From: [Archangium] primigenium
GTDB lineage: Bacteria; Myxococcota; Myxococcia; Myxococcales; Myxococcaceae
Direction of reading: 5' to 3'
Assembly: GCF_016904885.1 (NCBI RefSeq)
Contig: NZ_JADWYI010000001.1
Coordinates: forward strand, 7,177,224 to 7,241,223
Length of the DNA stretch: 64,000 nt
Below are positions 2,243 through 64,000 of this stretch, piece by piece. The notes under the pieces are model-generated. The model was given only the letters and a program-made list of their open reading frames with translations, made no database searches and had not been told where the DNA came from. Made by a program: the position numbers and the translations under genes. Within the stretch, counting starts at the first letter, position 1, and each line of letters opens with the position of its first letter.

Positions 2243-2315
2243 TTCAGTTCCCCAAATTGGAAGATGACGGAGGCTTGGACAACGTGGACGGCGATGGGTT
2301 CCCGGCGAGTGGAAT

Positions 2316-2630
2316 TCAGAGCTCGCCCACGGACTGCATCACCTTGTCCTCGAAGTCCTCGCGGATGCGGATGAGGTTGGAGTGGTCGACCTTCTTGCGC
2401 GCCTCGACGTACTCGCCGTCCGGCTTGGTGAGGTCGCCCTCGATGGTGTCGTCCTCGAAGTCGATGGTCTGGGGACCACCCTTGGCGGCCTTGCCACCCC
2501 CGCCGGACGAGCCGCCCGACGTGCCCCCACCCTCCTGGGCCAGGGCCGGCATCACGGTCAACATTCCACACAACATCAGGAGCTTGCGCATCTGGATCTC
2601 CGGGCGGCCCGCCTCAGGGGCGGGCCGCAT
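2316..2630 (-). CDS. gltF: Small secreted protein (104 aa), GltF-like by position
   Basis: Signal peptide MRKLLMLCGMLTVMPALAQE, a Gly/Ser-rich segment, then an acidic C-terminus. Sits between gltG and the TPR lipoprotein exactly where gltF sits in M. xanthus. The frame was chosen over overlapping shadow ORFs because of the signal peptide. Confidence 0.6.
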   Translation of the reverse strand: MRPAPEAGRPEIQMRKLLMLCGMLTVMPALAQEGGGTSGGSSGGGGKAAKGGPQTIDFEDDTIEGDLTKPDGEYVEARKKVDHSNLIRIREDFEDKVMQSVGEL

Positions 2631-2690
2631 ACAGCATCAAGGTTCGCATCAATTCCCCCCTCGCCGCCACAGGCACCGCGCGAGCGACGA

Positions 2691-4112
2691 CTAGAAGATA
2701 TCGTCGGGCTCGTTCGGATCCGCCGCGGGCGGATTTGTCTTCTGCGGGGCATTCGCCGGGGCCGGCGTGGGAGCGGGAGCGGGCGTGGCCGCGGGCTTCA
2801 CGCCCGCCGCCGGCTGGGTGGGGGCCGGGGCATCGGTGCCCGCGGCGTTGGTGACCACCCCCTGCTTGGCCTCCTCGGCCTTCATGAGCTCCTGCTGCTG
2901 CTTCTGCAGCTCCTCGAGCTTCTTGGCCTGCTCCTCCTGGAGCACGGCGTCGCGCTGGGCCTGGAGCACGGACTCCGCCTCGCGCTGCAGGGCGAAGATC
3001 GGGTGCTCGGCGGACAGCGCCACCTCGCCACCGGAGAGCGCCACGTACTTGCGGTAGAGCTCCACGGCGCGCTCGGGCACGCCCTTGTTGCGGTGCAGCA
3101 GCACGGCGCGGTTGAAGTAGACGGCGGCCAGGTTCGGGTCGAGCTTCTCCGCCTCGTCGTACTCCTGCATGGCCTTGTCGTACTGGCCCTGGCCCTTGAG
3201 GGCCACGCCCAGGTCGAGGTGGGCCGCGGCGTTCTTGCTGTTGGCCTGGAGGATGCGGCGCAGGTGCTCCTCGGCGCCGGCGTAGTTCTCCACCTCCAGG
3301 GCGAGCTGGGCGAGCGCCACGTGCGAGGGCACGTAGTCGGCGCGCACCTCCACCGCGCGCTTGAACTCCAGGCGCGCGTCGTCCTTCTTGTCCTCCTGCA
3401 AGAGGATGAGGCCGATGGTGTGGTGCAGCTCGGGATCGTTCTGGTCGATCTTCAGCGCGCGCAGGGCCACGAGCTTGGCCATGGCCAGCTGACGGCGCTC
3501 CACGTAGCTGCGCATCATCACCTTGTAGGCGGTGACGGACTGGGGCTCGCGCATGAGCGCCGCGCGGGCGAACTCCATCGCCTTGTCGTGGTCGCCCGTC
3601 TGCCGGTAGATCTCCGCGAGCCGCGCGCGGCTGTTGGCGTCATCCGGGTAGAGCTTCAGGATGCCCTGGTAGAGCGACACGGCGCCGGCCACGTCGCCGG
3701 CGTTCTGCGCCATGACCGCCAGGTTTTCCGACGCCTGACGCAGGGACGGCTTGGTCTTGAGCGCCGCCTGGTAGTGGGCGATGGCCTCCGAGGCCTTGCC
3801 CTGCCGCTCGGCGAGCACGCCCAGGTTGTACTCGGCCTCGGCCAGACCCGCGTCCGCGCTCAGGGCGGCCTTGAACTTGCGCTCGAGCGACGGGTAGTCG
3901 ACGGCGCCCGCCTTCTTCTGGGCCTCGTACGCGCCCAGCGCGTCCTCGAAGAGGAGCTTGGCGCGGTTGGAGATGGACTGCGGCTCGTTGGACTTGAGCG
4001 ACTTGGTGGTGTCCTCGGGCTTGGTGGCGGCCTGGGTGCCGGCACAACCCGTGGTGAGCAGCGCCGCGCAGGCGGCCAGGAGGAGGGGGCGCATCATGGG
4101 GGAGCGATTCAT
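2691..4112 (-). CDS. gltE: TPR-repeat lipoprotein, GltE/AglT-like
   Basis: 473 aa. Lipoprotein signal (MMRPLLLAACAALLTTGCAG) and multiple TPR repeats. The start codon overlaps the gltD stop by 1 nt (4112). The C-terminus has a coiled-coil plus Pro/Ala-rich tail. Confidence 0.8.
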   Translation of the reverse strand: MNRSPMMRPLLLAACAALLTTGCAGTQAATKPEDTTKSLKSNEPQSISNRAKLLFEDALGAYEAQKKAGAVDYPSLERKFKAALSADAGLAEAEYNLGVLAERQGKASEAIAHYQAALKTKPSLRQASENLAVMAQNAGDVAGAVSLYQGILKLYPDDANSRARLAEIYRQTGDHDKAMEFARAALMREPQSVTAYKVMMRSYVERRQLAMAKLVALRALKIDQNDPELHHTIGLILLQEDKKDDARLEFKRAVEVRADYVPSHVALAQLALEVENYAGAEEHLRRILQANSKNAAAHLDLGVALKGQGQYDKAMQEYDEAEKLDPNLAAVYFNRAVLLHRNKGVPERAVELYRKYVALSGGEVALSAEHPIFALQREAESVLQAQRDAVLQEEQAKKLEELQKQQQELMKAEEAKQGVVTNAAGTDAPAPTQPAAGVKPAATPAPAPTPAPANAPQKTNPPAADPNEPDDIF

Positions 4113-45796: not shown

Positions 45797-47695
45797 ATGC
45801 GACGTCTGGGTGGGGTATGGCTGTGCCTGCTGTTGTCGGGCTGCCCGAAGGGTTGCTCGGACGAGCAGGAGCCGGTGACCCCCGATGCGGGGCCCGTGGT
45901 CACCGGACCCGAGCAGCTCAGCGAGAAGGAGCCCAACGAGCGGCCCGAACAGGCCCTCACCCTCGCCAACGACGCGACGGTGAGCGCCAGCCTCGGCGCG
46001 GATCCCTCCAAGCCGGACGAGGACTGGTACCGCCTGGCCCCGGCCAGCCCCCGCGTGGCGGACGTGAGCGTCTCCGGCATTCCCGGCGGGGACGTGCTGC
46101 TCGAGGTGTACGACGCCCCCGGCGTGCGCAGCGCCAGCCTCAACAGCGCCGGCGTGGGCAAGCCCGAGCGCTTCCCCAACCTCTACGTCGAGCGCGAGCG
46201 CTGGGTGCGCGTGGCCTCGGCGCGCAAGGGCACCGGCGGCGCCTACACGCTCGAGGTGCGCTACCACTCACCCGAGGACGGCGTGGAGCGCGAGCCCAAT
46301 GACCGGGCCGTGGACGCCACCCCCCTGCAGCTCGGGCAGACCGTGGCGGGCTTCATCGGCCACGCGGGCGACGAGGACTGGTACCGGCTGGAGCTGCCCG
46401 AGGTCGCCGCCGCGCCCTCCCCCGCCCCGCCGGACACTGCGCCGCCCCCGCCCGCCCCCGAGCCGACACCCGCCGGGCCCGACTCCGGCGCGGCCGCCGA
46501 GAGCCCTCCGCCCTCCGAGCCCGGCACGACCGAGCCCTCCCCCGAGTCGCCCGTCGTGGACAACACCGCGCCTCTGGACGTGCCCATCCCCGTGCCCGCG
46601 CGCACGCCCGTCCCCGCGCCCGCCGCCGTGCCCGCGGAGCCCGCCATGGTGGCGCTGAAGATCGACCTGACGGGCATTGAAGGCGTGCGCCCCGAGCTGT
46701 CCGTGCTCACCGCCGCCGAGGCGCCCCTGTTCACCACCAAGGGCAACGAGGGCGAGCCCCTGTCGCTGCGCAACGTCGGGGTCCGGGCGAGCGATCGGGT
46801 GGTGTACCTCGTCGTCAAGAGCGGCTGGTCCGGCACCGGCAAGGACGCCCGGCGCGGCTTCAACCCGGAGAAGGCCTACACGCTCACGGTGACGCAGGAG
46901 GAGGCCGGCGCCAACGCGGAACTCGAGCCCAACGATGAGCTCTACAAGGCCACGCCCCTGCCGCTCGCGGGCTACAAGGAAGGCTTCCTGTCGCCCAAGG
47001 GGGACGTGGACAACTTCGTCCTCAAGACGACCGAGCCGGTGCTCGCCCGGGTGGAGCTGTCCGGCGTGGAGCGCATGGACCTGGAGCTGTCCGTCATCCA
47101 GCCGCCCGAGGGCGAGAACCAGAAGGAGGTCGTGCTCCAGCGGGCCAACGACGGCGCCATCAAGGAGCCCGAGCGCCTCAACAACGTGGCCTGTGGGGGC
47201 GCGTGCTACTTCCGCGTGCAGGGCGCGGCGCGCAAGGTGGACGGCAAGTGGGTGCGCGACTACGAGAACGCCGAGCAGCCCTACCGCCTCACCATCACCA
47301 CCGTGCCGGATGACGGCAGCCAGGAGCGCGAGCCCAACAACACCCCGGAGCGCGCCACGGAGCTGACCCTGGGCCGGGCGGTGCGCGGCACCGTCTACCC
47401 GCTCAAGGACGTGGACTACTACCGGCTGGACCTGTCCGAGCAGCCCGTGCGCACGCCGCTCAAGGCCACGCTGCTGGGCATCCTCAAGGTGGACGTGGGC
47501 CTGTACCTGCACCGCCTGGGTGAGGACGGCAAGCTGTCGCTCGTGCAGACGGCGGACCGCGCCAAGGGCGACCAGCCCGAGGTCATCCGCTACAGCGCCG
47601 AGCCCGCCGTCTACATCCTGGAGGTCCGGGACGCGAAGAACCGCGAGGCCAACTTCCAGGACTCCTACCAGCTCACCGTCGAGGAGGGAGACTAG
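45797..47695 (+). CDS. Lipoprotein with four pre-peptidase C-terminal (PPC)-type domains and Pro/Ala-rich linker; no protease domain
   Basis: Lipobox LLLSGCPKGC. Four repeats begin EPNE/EPND/EPNN...A(T)xL and end DxDWYRL/DVDNFVL/DVDYYRL, which is the PPC domain signature. Confidence 0.8.
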   Translation: MRRLGGVWLCLLLSGCPKGCSDEQEPVTPDAGPVVTGPEQLSEKEPNERPEQALTLANDATVSASLGADPSKPDEDWYRLAPASPRVADVSVSGIPGGDVLLEVYDAPGVRSASLNSAGVGKPERFPNLYVERERWVRVASARKGTGGAYTLEVRYHSPEDGVEREPNDRAVDATPLQLGQTVAGFIGHAGDEDWYRLELPEVAAAPSPAPPDTAPPPPAPEPTPAGPDSGAAAESPPPSEPGTTEPSPESPVVDNTAPLDVPIPVPARTPVPAPAAVPAEPAMVALKIDLTGIEGVRPELSVLTAAEAPLFTTKGNEGEPLSLRNVGVRASDRVVYLVVKSGWSGTGKDARRGFNPEKAYTLTVTQEEAGANAELEPNDELYKATPLPLAGYKEGFLSPKGDVDNFVLKTTEPVLARVELSGVERMDLELSVIQPPEGENQKEVVLQRANDGAIKEPERLNNVACGGACYFRVQGAARKVDGKWVRDYENAEQPYRLTITTVPDDGSQEREPNNTPERATELTLGRAVRGTVYPLKDVDYYRLDLSEQPVRTPLKATLLGILKVDVGLYLHRLGEDGKLSLVQTADRAKGDQPEVIRYSAEPAVYILEVRDAKNREANFQDSYQLTVEEGD

Positions 47696-47721
47696 CCACG
47701 GGGGGTCGAGCGATTTGCTCG

Positions 47722-47750
47722 TTGACAAGCACGGGCGGGCCCCCTACTTT
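47722..47750 (+). promoter_or_regulatory. Candidate sigma-70-type promoter for tRNA-Gly
   Basis: TTGACA (47722-27), a 17-nt spacer, then TACTTT (47745-50), about 16 nt upstream of the tRNA 5' end. Confidence 0.35.
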
Positions 47751-47766
47751 CCGCCCTGCTTGCCAC

Positions 47767-47839
47767 GCGGTGGTAGCTCAGTTGGTAGAGCACGAGCTTC
47801 CCAAGCTCGGGGTCGAGGGTTCGAATCCCTTCCGCCGCT
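47767..47839 (+). tRNA. tRNA-Gly (anticodon CCC)
   Basis: Cloverleaf folded by hand. Acceptor GCGGTGG/CCGCCGC, D-arm GCTC-AGTTGGTA-GAGC, anticodon stem CGAGC/GCTCG with loop TTCCCAA, T-arm GAGGG-TTCGAAT-CCCTT, discriminator T. No encoded CCA. Confidence 0.85.
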
Positions 47840-47897
47840 CTGAAGGGCCTGGAATCGCTGGGGAAATCCCCGGTGACTCCAGGCCCTTCTTCTTTGC
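47796..47897 (+). repeat. Direct repeat copy 1: 3' half of tRNA-Gly (from anticodon stem) plus downstream hairpin
   Basis: GCTTCCCAAGCTCGGGGTCGAGGGTTCGAATCCCTTCCGCCGCTCTGAA + GGGCCTGGAATCGCTGGGGAAATCCCCGGTGACTCCAGGCCCTTCTTCTTTGCC. Near-identical to the copy at 48837..48943. Confidence 0.8.
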
Positions 47898-47898
47898 C
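47843..47898 (+). terminator. Hairpin plus T-rich tract after tRNA-Gly
   Basis: AAGGGCCTGGA ... TCCAGGCCCTT (11-bp stem) followed by CTTCTTTGCC. Confidence 0.45.
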
Positions 47899-47951
47899 AA
47901 CCCGGGCGAGTGGCGTCTCCAAGGACGCGGACGGGATGCCGTTGGGGCAGG

Positions 47952-48281
47952 CTACCGTGCTCCGATAAGCCACACGATGTCGCCCAGGTCGGGGCGGCGC
48001 CCAAGTCCCCTCCACTCCGCATCCATCCGCGCGAGCTGTTCCTCCGCTGTTCCCGCCCAGGGAGCAAATGCGCCCCCTGGCAGAAGATGGACAGCCCGGA
48101 GCGTCCCACTGGCCAGCAAGGGACGCAAGGCGCTCAGCGTTTCCTGGCGCACCTCATCCTCCGTTGCGCCAAGCCGCCATTCGCGGATGTCCGCGGCCAG
48201 CCACCACAGGCCCAGGTCGCTGGTCATCGCGTCTCTGGCCCACCCTCGCTGCATGTCCTCCACCGTCCGCTGGTCGCTCAT
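47952..48281 (-). CDS. Small cytoplasmic hypothetical protein (109 aa), immunity-protein-like by context
   Basis: The start overlaps the upstream gene's stop (ATGA at 48278-81). Trp-rich (LGLWWLAADIREW...GDIVWLIGAR). GC3 lower than core genes. No known family recognised. Confidence 0.45.
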   Translation of the reverse strand: MSDQRTVEDMQRGWARDAMTSDLGLWWLAADIREWRLGATEDEVRQETLSALRPLLASGTLRAVHLLPGGAFAPWAGTAEEQLARMDAEWRGLGRRPDLGDIVWLIGAR

Positions 48282-48796
48282 GGAAGGAACTTGATCTCTC
48301 GAATGCCGAGCCCTTGAACGGTGACGTCAAGGGTCGGTGGGCCTGATGTCGACGAGGGACGCAAGCCCACCGTGCCTCCATTCGGAAGGCGTACCAGCTG
48401 GCCCGGGTAGGATGTACCGGTGACGCGCGTCCCACCGCCTGAGAGTTGCTCGAACAACTTCTCCGCCTCGCGGAGACCTCCCTTGATGACTCTGATCTTG
48501 GGACTGGAGCCTTCGGAACCGATGAGCCGTCCTCCGGGTCGCAGCAAGTCCTCAATGCCCCGGACCGAAACCGGAGCAGTTGGCTGTGCCGCCTGGCCTT
48601 GCTGCGCATGAGGCGGTGTGGGCGAGGGCTTGGCCTTCGCAGCGGCCTGCTCAATCTCCGCTGCCTTCCCTGGGTCGGCCACGCGCAGGGCCTCGCAGGC
48701 CGTTGGTGAGCCCTGCTTACACCCGCATATCGCAGTGCCATCCGTTGGTGAGCAGGGCGCATGTGCCAGCAAGAGGACCAGGAGGAAAGGGAGCAC
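48278..48796 (-). CDS. Secreted/lipoprotein-like hypothetical protein (172 aa from GTG), toxin-like by context
   Basis: The track ORF 48278..48937 begins by translating the antisense of the tRNA repeat. A plausible GTG start at 48796 gives VLPFLLVLLLAHAPCSPTDGTAICGCK (signal peptide with Cys). C-terminal ~100 aa globular region. GC3 ~69%, versus ~88% in core genes. Confidence 0.4.
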   Translation of the reverse strand: MLPFLLVLLLAHAPCSPTDGTAICGCKQGSPTACEALRVADPGKAAEIEQAAAKAKPSPTPPHAQQGQAAQPTAPVSVRGIEDLLRPGGRLIGSEGSSPKIRVIKGGLREAEKLFEQLSGGGTRVTGTSYPGQLVRLPNGGTVGLRPSSTSGPPTLDVTVQGLGIREIKFLP

Positions 48797-48836
48797 GGGC
48801 CTCAACCTACTCGGGGTTCGACTTGCGAGTACGCGC

Positions 48837-48943
48837 GCTTCCCAAGCTCGGGGTCGAGGGTTCGAATCCCTTCCGCCGCTCTGAACGAAGGGCCTGGAAT
48901 CTCTGGGGAACTCCCCCGGTGACTCCAGGCCCTTCATCTTTTC
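48837..48943 (+). repeat. Direct repeat copy 2: displaced partial tRNA-Gly 3' half plus hairpin (att-like scar)
   Basis: The 49-bp tRNA-derived segment is identical. The downstream part has a 3-bp insertion (CGA) and a few substitutions. It is not a functional tRNA because the 5' half is absent. Confidence 0.8.
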
Positions 48944-48961
48944 CGGCTGGAGCCGCCCCCG

Positions 48962-60578: not shown

Positions 60579-62390
60579 TCAGGGACGAGCGACGAGCTCC
60601 CGGTGCTGGTTGAAGAACCGCTCGAACAGCACGGTCAGTCGCTTGCGGATTTCTTCTCGGGGATGCTGCTCCCATTGGGCGAGGCAGCTCAGCAGCTCGC
60701 GCACCCACCCGGGGTTTTGCATGCGGGCGAACCGGGCCTCGAAGTAGAGCGCGAGGACCAGGGACTCGTTCTTCTCCTGCCCGTCCAGACGGACACCCGG
60801 TTGGGGATAGTCCTCGTGAGGGTCCAGTCCCGTCGGCAGTCCGGCGATCTCGATGACCACGCGCTTGAGCGCCCCCGGCTCGGCGTCGCGCAGCGGGAGC
60901 GTGCCGAGCCGACACGCATGGAAGAGCCAGATGAGGTAGCGCCGCAGCCGGCGCTCGGACAGCATCCGCATGGGACGCTCGGGCTCGAAGACCCGAAAAC
61001 TCTCCAGCACGTTCCAGGCGATGTCTTCCATGTCCTGGGTCCGCGTCCGGCCCCGCGCCCTTCCCGGCCGATGGTCTGTTCGCCAGGCGAGCGCCGCCTC
61101 GACGGCGAGCGCATCCGCGTCGAAGTCCAGCGCCTCGAGCACGAACCCTGTCCGGCCGCTGCCCTGGTAGTCATAGGAGGTGGCGCCCTGCTGGGCGACA
61201 TGGAACGCCTCGTGGACGAGCAACAACCGGACGCACTCCTCCCAGTCCTCGGGCGAGCGCAAGCGCTCCTGCAACTGCCGGTATCCCAGCAACAGGTTGA
61301 CGTGGAACGTCCAGCTGCCGTTGAGGTGCCGGAAGAGCGGGGCATTCTGGCGCGCGGGAACCGTGTCGATGTCGCTCTGGAGCAGGGACGTCTGCTCCAG
61401 CTTCTGGCGCAGGGACTTCTGTTTGGGACGCTTGAGCCAATCACACAGCTGCGCGTGGATGGTACGCACCCGCTTGAGCAGCTCTCCGGCCTCGGCGAAC
61501 TGCTCGGACGAGGGCGAGCCCGGTGTCGACGCGACCCGCCGCGGCGGATGGATGCGGCGGACGGCGAGGTACTTGCGCTGCTCGGGGTTGAAGTGGTGGA
61601 GCACCACGGGATGCTGCGTGTTCGTGTTGATGACCGAGCCCAGCGCGGCGGCCAGGCTGGCGGGTCCATCCATGGCGAGCAGCACGGACTCCACGCCCTC
61701 CAGGTGCTTGTGCAGGGTGTCCATCACGGAGCGGAACTGCTCGGCGGCCTCGGACGCATCCTGGAGGCTCTGGACGGCCTGGGGGCTCGGGCCTCCCCGC
61801 GCGGGCCGCAGGACCACGGTGGCGAGCAGCTCCGAGGGATGGCGGGCCTGGAACTCGGCGAGCGCCACATCCCGGATGGACTGGGTCACCTCGACGATGA
61901 GGGCCACCTTGCCCCGGCCTCCCTGACGTGACGTGGGCAGCCCCTCCAGCGCGAAGAACGGCGTCTGCGCGGAGGACAGCGAGCGGTCATAGCCCAGCAG
62001 CCAGGTGCCATCCGTGATCCGCTGTTGATACACGTACAGCGGCCGGCGCGGCAGGCAGGACGCCAGGTGCAGCATCAGCATCAGGGGGGCGCACCCGAAG
62101 AGGTGGATGTCCAGATCCACCCCCAGCTCCCGCTCCTTCCTCGACAAGGCCTCGGCGAAGCGCTCGTTCTCGTCGAAGGCCGCGGACCAGTCCTGCTCGG
62201 GCCGCGTCCGGATGCGCGTGTGGGGCTCGAACGGATGCAGCACGACCGCCACGACATCCCGGTCACCTTCCACGCCTCGCTGCTTCAGGGCGTCGCGCGC
62301 GGCGTCCTCCGTGATGGGCCTGTCGTGCTCGTAGCGCAGGATGAGGGCTCGGGTCCTCACGTTGATGGGAATGTCGATGTCCATGGGCAT
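60579..62390 (-). CDS. Hypothetical protein: N-terminal tandem Rossmann-like (SAVED/CARF-like) repeats fused to C-terminal DUF4157-type HExxH (zincin-like) domain
   Basis: Start at the Met at 62390 (MPMDIDIPI...); the track start at 62522 would overlap the kinase gene. Two repeats centred on IHLFGCAPLMLMLHLASCL...PLYVYQQ and VLLAMDGPASLAAALGSVIN...PVVLHHF. The C-terminal LLLVHEAFHVAQQG matches the DUF4157 HExxHxxQQ signature. Confidence 0.7.
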   Translation of the reverse strand: MPMDIDIPINVRTRALILRYEHDRPITEDAARDALKQRGVEGDRDVVAVVLHPFEPHTRIRTRPEQDWSAAFDENERFAEALSRKERELGVDLDIHLFGCAPLMLMLHLASCLPRRPLYVYQQRITDGTWLLGYDRSLSSAQTPFFALEGLPTSRQGGRGKVALIVEVTQSIRDVALAEFQARHPSELLATVVLRPARGGPSPQAVQSLQDASEAAEQFRSVMDTLHKHLEGVESVLLAMDGPASLAAALGSVINTNTQHPVVLHHFNPEQRKYLAVRRIHPPRRVASTPGSPSSEQFAEAGELLKRVRTIHAQLCDWLKRPKQKSLRQKLEQTSLLQSDIDTVPARQNAPLFRHLNGSWTFHVNLLLGYRQLQERLRSPEDWEECVRLLLVHEAFHVAQQGATSYDYQGSGRTGFVLEALDFDADALAVEAALAWRTDHRPGRARGRTRTQDMEDIAWNVLESFRVFEPERPMRMLSERRLRRYLIWLFHACRLGTLPLRDAEPGALKRVVIEIAGLPTGLDPHEDYPQPGVRLDGQEKNESLVLALYFEARFARMQNPGWVRELLSCLAQWEQHPREEIRKRLTVLFERFFNQHRELVARP

Positions 62391-62463
62391 CCGGTGGTGT
62401 TTTCCGCCTCCACACGGGAAGACGGAATCGCCGGGCGAATCCATCGCGGGCCGTGCGCTTTTT

Positions 62464-63309
62464 TCAGGTTCCGGGGGTGAGCAGCCCGAGCACTTCCGCC
62501 AGGGCGGGCCGGTCCTCGGCATCCTTCGCCAGCATCCGCGCCATCATCGTCCGTACGGCGTCGGACGCACGACCCTCGAGCAGCGCCAGGGGCGGTTCGC
62601 CTCGGACGTGAAGGATCATCAATCCCTGCTGACCGCTCGACTGGAAAGGCAGTTGGCCCGTCAGCAGCTGAAACCACAGGACGCCCAGGGAGTAGACGTC
62701 CGCCGACGGTCCCACCGTCTTCGCATCGAACCACTGCTCCGGGGGCCGGTAGTCCGCGGTGCCGAGCATCGTGCCACCCGCCGTGGAGATGGGCAGCCCC
62801 TCGGGTCCCGCCGAAGGGAGCCGCTTGGCGAGTCCAAGGTCCGCGAGCCGCACGCTCCAATCACCCGGCACCCGGCGAGCCACGAGCACGTTCTCGGGCT
62901 TCAAGTCCCGATGGATGATCCCCTTCGCATGGAGCAGGGAGAGCACCTCGGCCAGCTGCCCGACGACCTGGACACTCTCCAGGCAAGACAGCCGGCCTCC
63001 CACGCGGGCGAGCGCGCGGGCGAGGTCCTCCGGATGCCACTCCAACACCATGTAGGGTGGGCCCTCGGGGAGCTCCCCCGAGGAGAGACCCTTCACCAGA
63101 TGCGGATGCGCGAGCCCCTGGAGCATCCGGGCCTCGTTGAGGAAGCGCGCCATGACCTCGGGGTCGATGCACCACGTCGGGTGCAGGACCTTGATGGCCA
63201 CGGAGGCGCCATCGGACGCCCTGCGTCCTTCGTAGACGGTGCCGGTCAGCCCCTCCGCGACGAAGCGCAGCAGGCGGTACTCCCCGACCTGTGTTCCCTT
63301 CGACAGCAT
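62464..63309 (-). CDS. Hanks-type Ser/Thr protein kinase (kinase domain only, 281 aa)
   Basis: Met at 63309 (MLSKGTQVGEYRLLRFVAEGLTGTVYEG). VAIK Lys; catalytic loop IIHRDLKPENVLV; ADLGLAK; activation segment ...GTADYRPPE. Confidence 0.85.
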   Translation of the reverse strand: MLSKGTQVGEYRLLRFVAEGLTGTVYEGRRASDGASVAIKVLHPTWCIDPEVMARFLNEARMLQGLAHPHLVKGLSSGELPEGPPYMVLEWHPEDLARALARVGGRLSCLESVQVVGQLAEVLSLLHAKGIIHRDLKPENVLVARRVPGDWSVRLADLGLAKRLPSAGPEGLPISTAGGTMLGTADYRPPEQWFDAKTVGPSADVYSLGVLWFQLLTGQLPFQSSGQQGLMILHVRGEPPLALLEGRASDAVRTMMARMLAKDAEDRPALAEVLGLLTPGT

Positions 63310-63320
63310 TCCAAGTGCCT

Positions 63321-64000
63321 CTACTTCGAGCCGGTGGGCTTGAGCATGTACAGCGCCTGGATGCAAGACAGCAGGCTCCGCAATTCCTCGGCGCACTGGG
63401 GATGGTCCGCCACGAAAGCCTCCACGTCCACCTGCTCACCCTGCTGCTGTTTGCGCATGTAGAGGAGCAGGGCCGCATCCGCGGCGTTCTGGATGATGGC
63501 GTCCTGGCTGATTCCCGGCGACTGCTTCTCGGGGTTGCCAGACCTGCGATCCCGGATGGCGCGCACAGCTCGCTGGCGGAGGGAGCTCACCGCATCCTGA
63601 CTCTTGCCCATGTGTTGCGCGATCTCCGCATCGGACAGATCGTCCAGATAATAGAGAAAGACGACCTTCCGTTGCTCCTTGGGCAGGCCGTAGACATACC
63701 CCAGCAGTTGTCGACACTCCTCCTGCTGGGATGCGAACTGACTCGGGCTTCGCTGGACGGCGGCCAGTTGATGGGAATCGAGTTCCTCCAGGGACTCCGT
63801 GGCATCCTCGCTTCGCTTCTGGCTGTGGGCCTCGCGCGAGATATCCATGAGGCGTCTCCGCTGAATCTTCTTGAGCCAGGCGAACCACGACTCCTCGGTC
63901 TCTCCGTCGAAGGAGGGGAAGCGCTGGAAGGCACGCAGCGCTGTTTCCTGAACGAGATCCGATTTGCGGGTACCAGCCGGAGGGGACCGTCCCATCTGGT
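63321..64000 (-). CDS. ECF-type sigma factor with C-terminal extension (partial; N-terminus beyond window end)
   Basis: Region 2 DLVQETALRAFQRFPSFDG...WFAWLKKIQRRR and region 4 LSDAEIAQHMGKSQDAVSSLRQRA, followed by a ~75-aa extension. The conserved region 1.2/2.1 lead-in is missing, so the true start lies past 64000. Confidence 0.75.
   Translation of the reverse strand, partial: QMGRSPPAGTRKSDLVQETALRAFQRFPSFDGETEESWFAWLKKIQRRRLMDISREAHSQKRSEDATESLEELDSHQLAAVQRSPSQFASQQEECRQLLGYVYGLPKEQRKVVFLYYLDDLSDAEIAQHMGKSQDAVSSLRQRAVRAIRDRRSGNPEKQSPGISQDAIIQNAADAALLLYMRKQQQGEQVDVEAFVADHPQCAEELRSLLSCIQALYMLKPTGSK

Follow-up and report, generated by a model that had tools for sequence, protein, structure and literature searches.

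A toxin–immunity islet in a tRNA-Gly gene of Archangium primigenium is probably the integrase-less remnant of a small Mx9-like element

We analysed a 64,000-nucleotide stretch of the [Archangium] primigenium genome (contig NZ_JADWYI010000001.1, positions 7,177,224 to 7,241,223 of the forward strand), hereafter the window, in which the 3' half of a tRNA-Gly(CCC) gene recurs about 1 kb downstream of itself. Between the two copies lies an islet with two small genes, a putative toxin–immunity pair. We find it probable, at roughly 80%, that this islet is the integrase-less remnant of a small Mx9-like tyrosine-integrase element that inserted in tRNA-Gly(CCC) and whose toxin–immunity cargo has been kept. 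Positions below are those of the window unless a comparison locus is named; feature coordinates are collected in Table 1.

The only tRNA gene in the window is tRNA-Gly(CCC), called by ARAGORN and by Rfam (RF00005, 69.9 bits) in agreement with the original prediction, which had been made from the sequence alone. A 48-nt probe from the 3' part of this gene found two exact matches in the 64 kb, at 47797–47844 and 48838–48885, where shuffled sequences lead one to expect none. Sequence reading and pairwise alignment gave a maximal identical run of 49 bp (47796–47844 and 48837–48885), which begins two bases 5' of the anticodon loop and stops 4–5 nt beyond the tRNA. Past this run the similarity continues through a strong hairpin up to 47898 in copy 1 and 48944 in copy 2, for a total of ~105 bp. 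The direct repeat was thus as predicted, 49 bp identical, 1,041 bp apart and with the terminator hairpin included. The prediction had also expected a few substitutions and one 3-bp indel in the non-identical part; the substitutions were found (four), and in place of the single indel copy 2 has insertions of 4 bp and 1 bp, with the start-to-start spacing stepping from 1041 to 1045 to 1046. All six of these difference events fall outside the 49-bp tRNA block (P ~0.02 under an even spread). This fits copies of different lineage origin, in which the tRNA is conserved and the trailer is not, and argues against an old duplication in place.

The repeat-borne hairpins are both strongly folding structures, that of copy 2 reaching −39.9 kcal/mol (z = −6.7), and hairpin 1 likely acts as a two-way terminator that serves the tRNA and the convergent immunity gene. 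A simple terminator and promoter scan returned nothing, the internal mismatches and interrupted T-runs of these hairpins making such a scan uninformative. Copy 2 alone has no tRNA-like fold and was not called by ARAGORN. The 48-nt probe found no third copy in the 64-kb window, including the 15 kb that follow copy 2. Across 47600–48950, the GC content of the islet (0.63–0.67) is slightly under that of its flanks (0.68–0.73).

Comparison with relatives identified the empty form of this site. In 78 related myxobacterial loci, synteny of the upstream genes extends as far as the tRNA, and the tRNA scan, which covered 31 of them, placed tRNA-Gly(CCC) at the same position beside the same 638-aa gene in every case (31/31). 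None of the window genes to the right of the tRNA was found within 10 kb downstream in any of the 78 loci. The nearest retrieved relatives, Melittangium boletus (L090) and the metagenome contigs L091 and L092, have a flanking gene 85–86% identical to that of the window. Each has a single tRNA-Gly copy, followed by the hairpin and then by a conserved gene set (a 223/230-aa protein, a radical SAM protein, a DUF952 protein, an M13 peptidase and others), and the insert is missing. None of these downstream genes is present in the window. A further relative, 95% identical, is represented by a 2-kb contig (P0023) without the downstream flank.

The empty sites also distinguish the two copies of the repeat. 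Against the L091, L092 and Melittangium boletus sites, copy 2 aligns colinearly, with 65 matches in 76 columns and no gaps, and it shares with them a 4-bp trailer, GAAC, and a run of five Cs in the loop. Copy 1 matches the same sites at 59 of 73 columns with five gap columns, is without the 4-bp trailer and the fifth C, and has a divergent tail. This is the polarity expected of integration, in which copy 2 would be the chromosomal 3' half, displaced along with its native flank, and copy 1 would have been brought by the element. The 5' part of the present tRNA gene is chromosomal, and from the anticodon loop onward the gene is probably element-derived (attL). Separately, a conserved CTTGACTGAACG(N)CTTTCAG...CACCCTG motif was seen just after the tRNA-Gly hairpin in four loci, L002, L033, L030 and L022 (Cystobacter fuscus, Hyalangium, Corallococcus).

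Elements with the expected parts are found at the orthologous tRNA and elsewhere. At the orthologous tRNA-Gly(CCC) of Myxococcus vastator (L061), the gene next to the tRNA encodes a 491-aa integrase, a single open reading frame (ORF) that reads into the tRNA; beyond it come cargo genes, an excisionase (xis) homologue and a second tRNA fragment (attR) 8.1 kb away. The attL/attR repeat of this element is ~130 bp and spans everything from the anticodon stem to the terminator hairpin, the tRNA 3' end included. Because the attachment site (attP) of the family copies the terminator too, the window repeat reaches ~55 bp beyond the tRNA. Repeat identity begins at the same position, GC|TTCCCAA, in the window, in L061 and in L067, an integrase-less 4.1-kb islet of the same structure. 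The attR of L061 reads CGCGC instead of the tRNA's CGAGC in the 5' arm of the anticodon stem, and the same change is present in copy 2 of the window.

The cassette itself (window 47941/47950–48817) recurs at 77–89% nucleotide identity in several other contexts. In a metagenome contig (L081) it is 89% identical to the window and lies within a 3.25-kb element at tRNA-Arg(CCG). In tRNA orientation this element consists of tRNA-Arg(CCG), the hairpin, an integrase gene, two small ORFs, the immunity gene, the toxin gene, xis and a ~61-bp tRNA-Arg 3' fragment, 3,246 bp from the first copy; orf196 stands between the integrase and immunity genes. The integrase belongs to PF00589, is 49% identical to that of L061 and has a reading frame that passes through the hairpin into the tRNA. 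The xis gene encodes an excisionase-family helix-turn-helix (HTH) protein (PF12728; TIGR01764, 47.5 bits). In Melittangium boletus (L079) the cassette again stands beside tRNA-Arg(CCG), with only integrase fragments left. At L084 (3761–12337), the 3' fragment of a tRNA-Met gene recurs three times downstream of that gene, with spacings of 3753, 2936 and 1808 bp. The locus is a tandem array of three islets, each beginning with a xis-like gene, and the cassette lies with a xis gene in the middle one; Pfam found no integrase among the ORFs tested there. The comparison loci thus form a decay series, from integrase fragments (L079) to an integrase-less islet (L067) and a tandem array (L084).

Five occupied tRNA-Gly loci and both tRNA-Arg loci have a motif, TGCAGCAAGGATGCAGCAA, at ~118 nt from the core, and L061 and L081 have a second copy of it on the xis side. 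It is probably an arm-type site. Searches with single-protein patterns retrieved no related integrases from viral contigs.

The original prediction had read the repeat as an attL/attR-like signature of site-specific integration, and had left open whether the islet was a decayed remnant or whether copy 2 was the left end of a larger tandem island extending past 64 kb. Four independent lines support integration: the empty relatives, the colinearity of copy 2 with their sites, the L081 element and the L061 element at the orthologous tRNA. The original prediction had noted no integrase in the window, and this was borne out: there was no PF00589 hit, and tblastn with the family's integrases gave only a translation artefact over copy 2. 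No xis gene and no copy of TGCAGCAAGGATGCAGCAA was found anywhere in the window; what is left of xis is 3'-end remnants. The remnant next to hairpin 1 has 85% identity with L084 8841–8888, the 3' end of a xis gene, and also matches L086 and L081. On the other side, the stretch between the toxin start and copy 2 aligns with xis of L081, at the 3' end that lies ahead of the toxin gene. Remnants of the xis 3' end therefore bracket the window cassette, as they do in L081 and L084, and together with the loss of the arm motif they support the decayed-remnant option. In the window, the integrase and the other genes that lie to the right of hairpin 1 in intact relatives, the rest of xis and the arm have been deleted. 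A 7-bp sequence, GGAAGCG, occurs both in the att core and at the 3' end of xis (alignment A5), and it might, as no more than a suggestion, mark a deletion junction at 48823–48836. Having lost both arms, the islet is very probably unable to move.

Direct repeats of the 3' part of xis bracket the cassette in the relatives also, in L081 at 361–393/1558–1590 and 629–654/1569–1594, and in L084 at 5703–5801/6814–6912/8775–8873. This arrangement suggests that recombination within xis is how the cassette is acquired or swapped.

Between the repeats, 938 bp contain two ORFs on the minus strand, the stop of one overlapping the start of the other by 4 nt (ATGA). The first gene of this putative operon encodes a 172-aa protein with homologues at 79–92% identity. 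These share a C-terminal domain of ~90 residues (LLRPGGRLIG...STSGPPTIDV...GIREIKF), and all 27 invariant columns of the homologue alignment (A2) fall within the last ~90 residues. In some homologues the domain follows the same short, hydrophobic, Cys-rich N-terminus, and in others it follows unrelated N-terminal regions, one of which is of RHS type with a DPxGxF...DP motif (a 'DPRLGQF..DP' junction). In the window protein, residues 8–77 are predicted to be disordered, the C-terminal domain has a predicted fold with pLDDT >90, and there is a non-canonical lipobox-like motif, L-A-H-A-P-C. Searches found no structural neighbour of the domain and no match to Pfam, NCBIfam or other families. The second gene encodes a 109-aa protein that is 77–90% identical to its homologues and directly follows the toxin gene in every homologous locus (L079–L086), and it has no Pfam, NCBIfam or PDB match. 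Because the C-terminal domain occurs on unrelated N-termini and a small downstream gene is inherited with it, we designated the two as a putative polymorphic toxin–immunity pair.

Myxobacteria have toxin–immunity loci of this general form in SitA/SitI, which act through outer-membrane exchange (PMC5562445, PMC8546572). The SitA toxins are lipoproteins with an N-terminal escort domain of ~375 aa (PMC8546572). The window pair resembles SitA/SitI as a myxobacterial two-gene toxin–immunity operon with a polymorphic C-terminal toxin domain. The window protein differs from SitA in being 172 aa in total, in its non-canonical lipobox-like motif and in a toxin domain that belongs to no known family; membership in SitA was ruled out by size and architecture, there being no ~375-aa escort domain.

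Among phage integrases, the closest to that of the element family is the Int protein of myxophage Mx9 (35.6% identity over 60% of the query, E 1e-42). Mx9 Int is reported to act on an attP inside its own int gene and on an attB in a tRNA-Gly gene. The Mx9 int gene holds a perfect 42-bp copy of positions 1–42 of tRNA-Gly(CCC) on the opposite strand, located in the Mx9 record (L089, AY247757.2) at 2000–2041 on the minus strand, inside the annotated int coding sequence (607–2253); the record has no attP feature. A 13-bp anticodon stem-loop core, GCTTCCCAAGCTC, is common to this copy and to copy 2 of the window. These matches place the Mx9 attP within int and at the same tRNA-Gly core that the element family uses. 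The family resembles Mx9 in both respects, with an attP on the strand opposite to int, in the 3' part of that gene, and with the same tRNA-Gly(CCC) core. In contrast, Mx9 bears the 5' 42 bp of the tRNA whereas the family bears the 3' half with its terminator hairpin, so that the two contribute opposite sides of the rebuilt tRNA; Mx9 is also a 53-kb phage whereas the elements are of 3–8 kb with no phage genes seen, and the window has no integrase. Of the Mx9-like features the window has kept the core repeats only, and shared att boundaries and xis remnants are what link it to its relatives L061 and L081.

Two other systems offer partial parallels. The attP of Mx8 is said to lie within intP, integration altering the C-terminus of IntP. 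Likewise, the integrase frames of L061 and L081 cross attP into the tRNA, so that integration changes the C-terminus. Mx8 differs in its target, which is tRNA-Asp, and the phage search returned no close Mx8 sequence match to the family's integrase. Cis-mobilizable elements (CIMEs), such as those related to ICESt1/ICESt3 of Streptococcus thermophilus, are att-flanked remnants of integrative elements without recombination genes. The window islet is similar to these, with repeats on both sides and no recombination module, an origin in a larger element and a position in a tRNA-type accretion hotspot (compare L084). It differs from a CIME in having no family arm-type motif on either side and in a parent that, as far as seen, was not conjugative. 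The missing arm motif makes mobilization in trans doubtful.

The region to the right of copy 2 bears on whether the islet stands alone. Homology to the empty sites ends ~14 nt past copy 2 and is followed by at least 15 kb of lineage-specific genes, among them those for an ADP-ribosylglycohydrolase, a GON-domain protein and a PRMT-like methyltransferase. The 2,218-aa RHS/NHL protein in this stretch is probably another polymorphic toxin, and the SAVED–kinase–ECF sigma factor trio is possibly a defence module like the cyclic-oligonucleotide-based antiphage signalling systems (CBASS). A row of SMODS (three genes), ThiF, SAVED, kinase and ECF sigma factor genes also stands beside tRNA-Arg(CCG) in Melittangium boletus (L079); orthology of the two trios, which would have hinted at a rearrangement between element copies, was dropped, there being no nucleotide similarity.

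Table 1. Features of the tRNA-Gly(CCC) islet and of the genes to its right (window positions).
Feature	Position	Strand	Evidence or remarks
tRNA-Gly(CCC)	47767..47840	+	functional gene; ARAGORN, Rfam RF00005, synteny beside the 638-aa gene
Repeat copy 1 (attL side)	47796..47898	+	anticodon stem/loop, tRNA 3' end and terminator hairpin; apparently the imported version of trailer and hairpin
Hairpin 1	47842..47889	+	inverted repeat I4; −43.5 kcal/mol, z −8.8
Remnant of xis (HTH_17) 3' end, ~45 bp	47901..47948	-	abuts hairpin 1; alignment A5
Putative immunity protein, 109 aa	47952..48281	-	ORF; start overlaps toxin stop by 4 nt
Secreted or lipoprotein-like protein, 172 aa	48278..48796	-	GTG start; candidate polymorphic-toxin C-terminal domain of ~90 aa
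Residual xis 3' end (~20–35 bp) and a few bases of the element's P arm	48803..48836	-	aligns with the 3' end of L081 xis
Repeat copy 2 (attR side)	48837..48944	+	apparently the displaced original tRNA 3' half, trailer and native terminator hairpin
End of native flank, ~14 nt	48945..48960	+	TTTTCCGGCTGGAG versus TTTTTCCGACTCGAG in empty sites; synteny stops here
S74 fibre-like protein, 453 aa	48962-50323	-	YadA-head repeats, C-terminal Peptidase_S74 (endosialidase chaperone); phage-tail-fibre-like; stop 18 nt after copy 2
RHS/YD-repeat protein, 2,218 aa	51294-57950	-	NHL-type repeats, variable C-terminus
SAVED-domain protein, Ser/Thr kinase and extracytoplasmic function (ECF) sigma factor, in a row	60579-63995	-	

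This stretch could reflect tandem islands, in which copy 2 would also be the left (attL-type) end of an older and larger island at the same att site, running past 64 kb to end in a third tRNA fragment. The 15 kb or more to the right of copy 2 is missing from the same position in the 78 loci and in the three empty-site relatives, and is rich in conflict genes (the RHS toxin, the S74 fibre-like protein and SAVED). Moreover, the search for an A. primigenium orthologue of the 230-aa gene native to the downstream flank found none, and arrays of islets separated by tRNA fragments are known in the family from L084. However, copy 2 resembles native attB-side DNA in its trailer, hairpin and 14-nt tail, all of which agree with the empty chromosomal sites and not with the hairpins borne by elements. 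The window to its right also has no int, xis or arm motif, and no third copy occurs within the next 15 kb. Downstream flanks vary between genera in any case, which makes the lost synteny weak evidence. We therefore regard a second, larger island as unlikely.

Alternatively, an already decayed block of tRNA, islet and attR may have been acquired from a related strain by homologous recombination through the upstream genes and the tRNA region. Such a route would suit an islet that has no recombination functions of its own, and the xis-derived repeats that flank the cassette in several elements would favour homologous exchange. Yet the repeat would still need an integration event somewhere, copy 2 has a flank of native type and no donor allele was found, and we consider import of the whole segment quite improbable. 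Finally, unequal crossing-over could yield direct repeats ~1 kb apart, but we reject a tandem duplication of the tRNA 3' half in place, with native genes between the copies, given a cassette that recurs at 77–89% nucleotide identity in unrelated contexts and inside an integrase element, the empty sites of relatives, the different relation of the two copies to the empty site, and differences that avoid the non-functional tRNA part of copy 2.

Several observations weigh against a remnant of a small Mx9-like element as the explanation. The window is without integrase, xis gene or arm site, and the recombinase responsible for this insertion is deduced from relatives. The only integrase-containing element with this cassette, L081, is at tRNA-Arg and not at tRNA-Gly, and the tRNA-Gly elements found bear other cargo. 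The integrase frame of L081 is split into orf90 and a 361-aa ORF (2253–3601) that overlap by 10 nt, on a contig with 3.7x coverage; the split is either a frameshift or an assembly error. At two positions inside the hairpin proper, the empty sites agree with copy 1 and not with copy 2, so that the case for polarity depends on the indels and the tail. Lastly, toxin activity is a prediction for a domain that matches no toxin fold or family.

Taken with these reservations, the small-element reading suggests the following history. In the A. primigenium lineage, a small Mx9-like integrative element would have inserted site-specifically into tRNA-Gly(CCC) at its anticodon-loop core, GCTTCCCAAGCTC. 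As the attP of the family, at the 3' end of int, bears the tRNA 3' half and terminator hairpin, integration would have rebuilt a working tRNA, whose new end would be copy 1 (attL), and would have displaced the original 3' half, together with the native terminator, to the distal side of the insert as copy 2 (attR). The cargo would have been a polymorphic toxin–immunity pair. Later deletions would then have removed int, other element genes, nearly all of xis and the arm-type sites, leaving the toxin–immunity operon between two core repeats. The islet is most likely fixed, capable neither of self-excision nor of excision in trans. It probably persists because immunity would protect against neighbours with the same toxin, and the toxin may be useful in competition.

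The scar itself is of an ordinary, textbook kind; such mild interest as there is lies in the element family and in the toxin domain, which is unclassified. We tentatively propose, with rather less than even confidence, that the comparison loci and the window belong to an undescribed Myxococcota family of ~3–8 kb Mx9-like elements that act as dedicated toxin–immunity shuttles. Such elements would carry an attP with a tRNA 3' half and terminator, target the anticodon loops of tRNA-Gly(CCC), tRNA-Arg(CCG) and tRNA-Met, form tandem arrays and swap cassettes within xis, and the window islet would be a fixed end-product. For annotation of this genome, the analysis marks 47.9–48.9 kb as probably horizontally acquired, offers an explanation for the pseudo-tRNA fragment and flags an unannotated putative toxin–immunity pair. 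If the element family is confirmed, its integrases and ~130-bp att sites may provide extra myxobacterial integration tools beside those of Mx8 and Mx9. More broadly, the islet may tie the kin-discrimination-type toxin cassettes of myxobacteria to very small tRNA-targeting elements related to phage Mx9, and the comparison loci illustrate how such elements decay, through loss of int, xis and arm sites, into 'locked-in' toxin–immunity islets.

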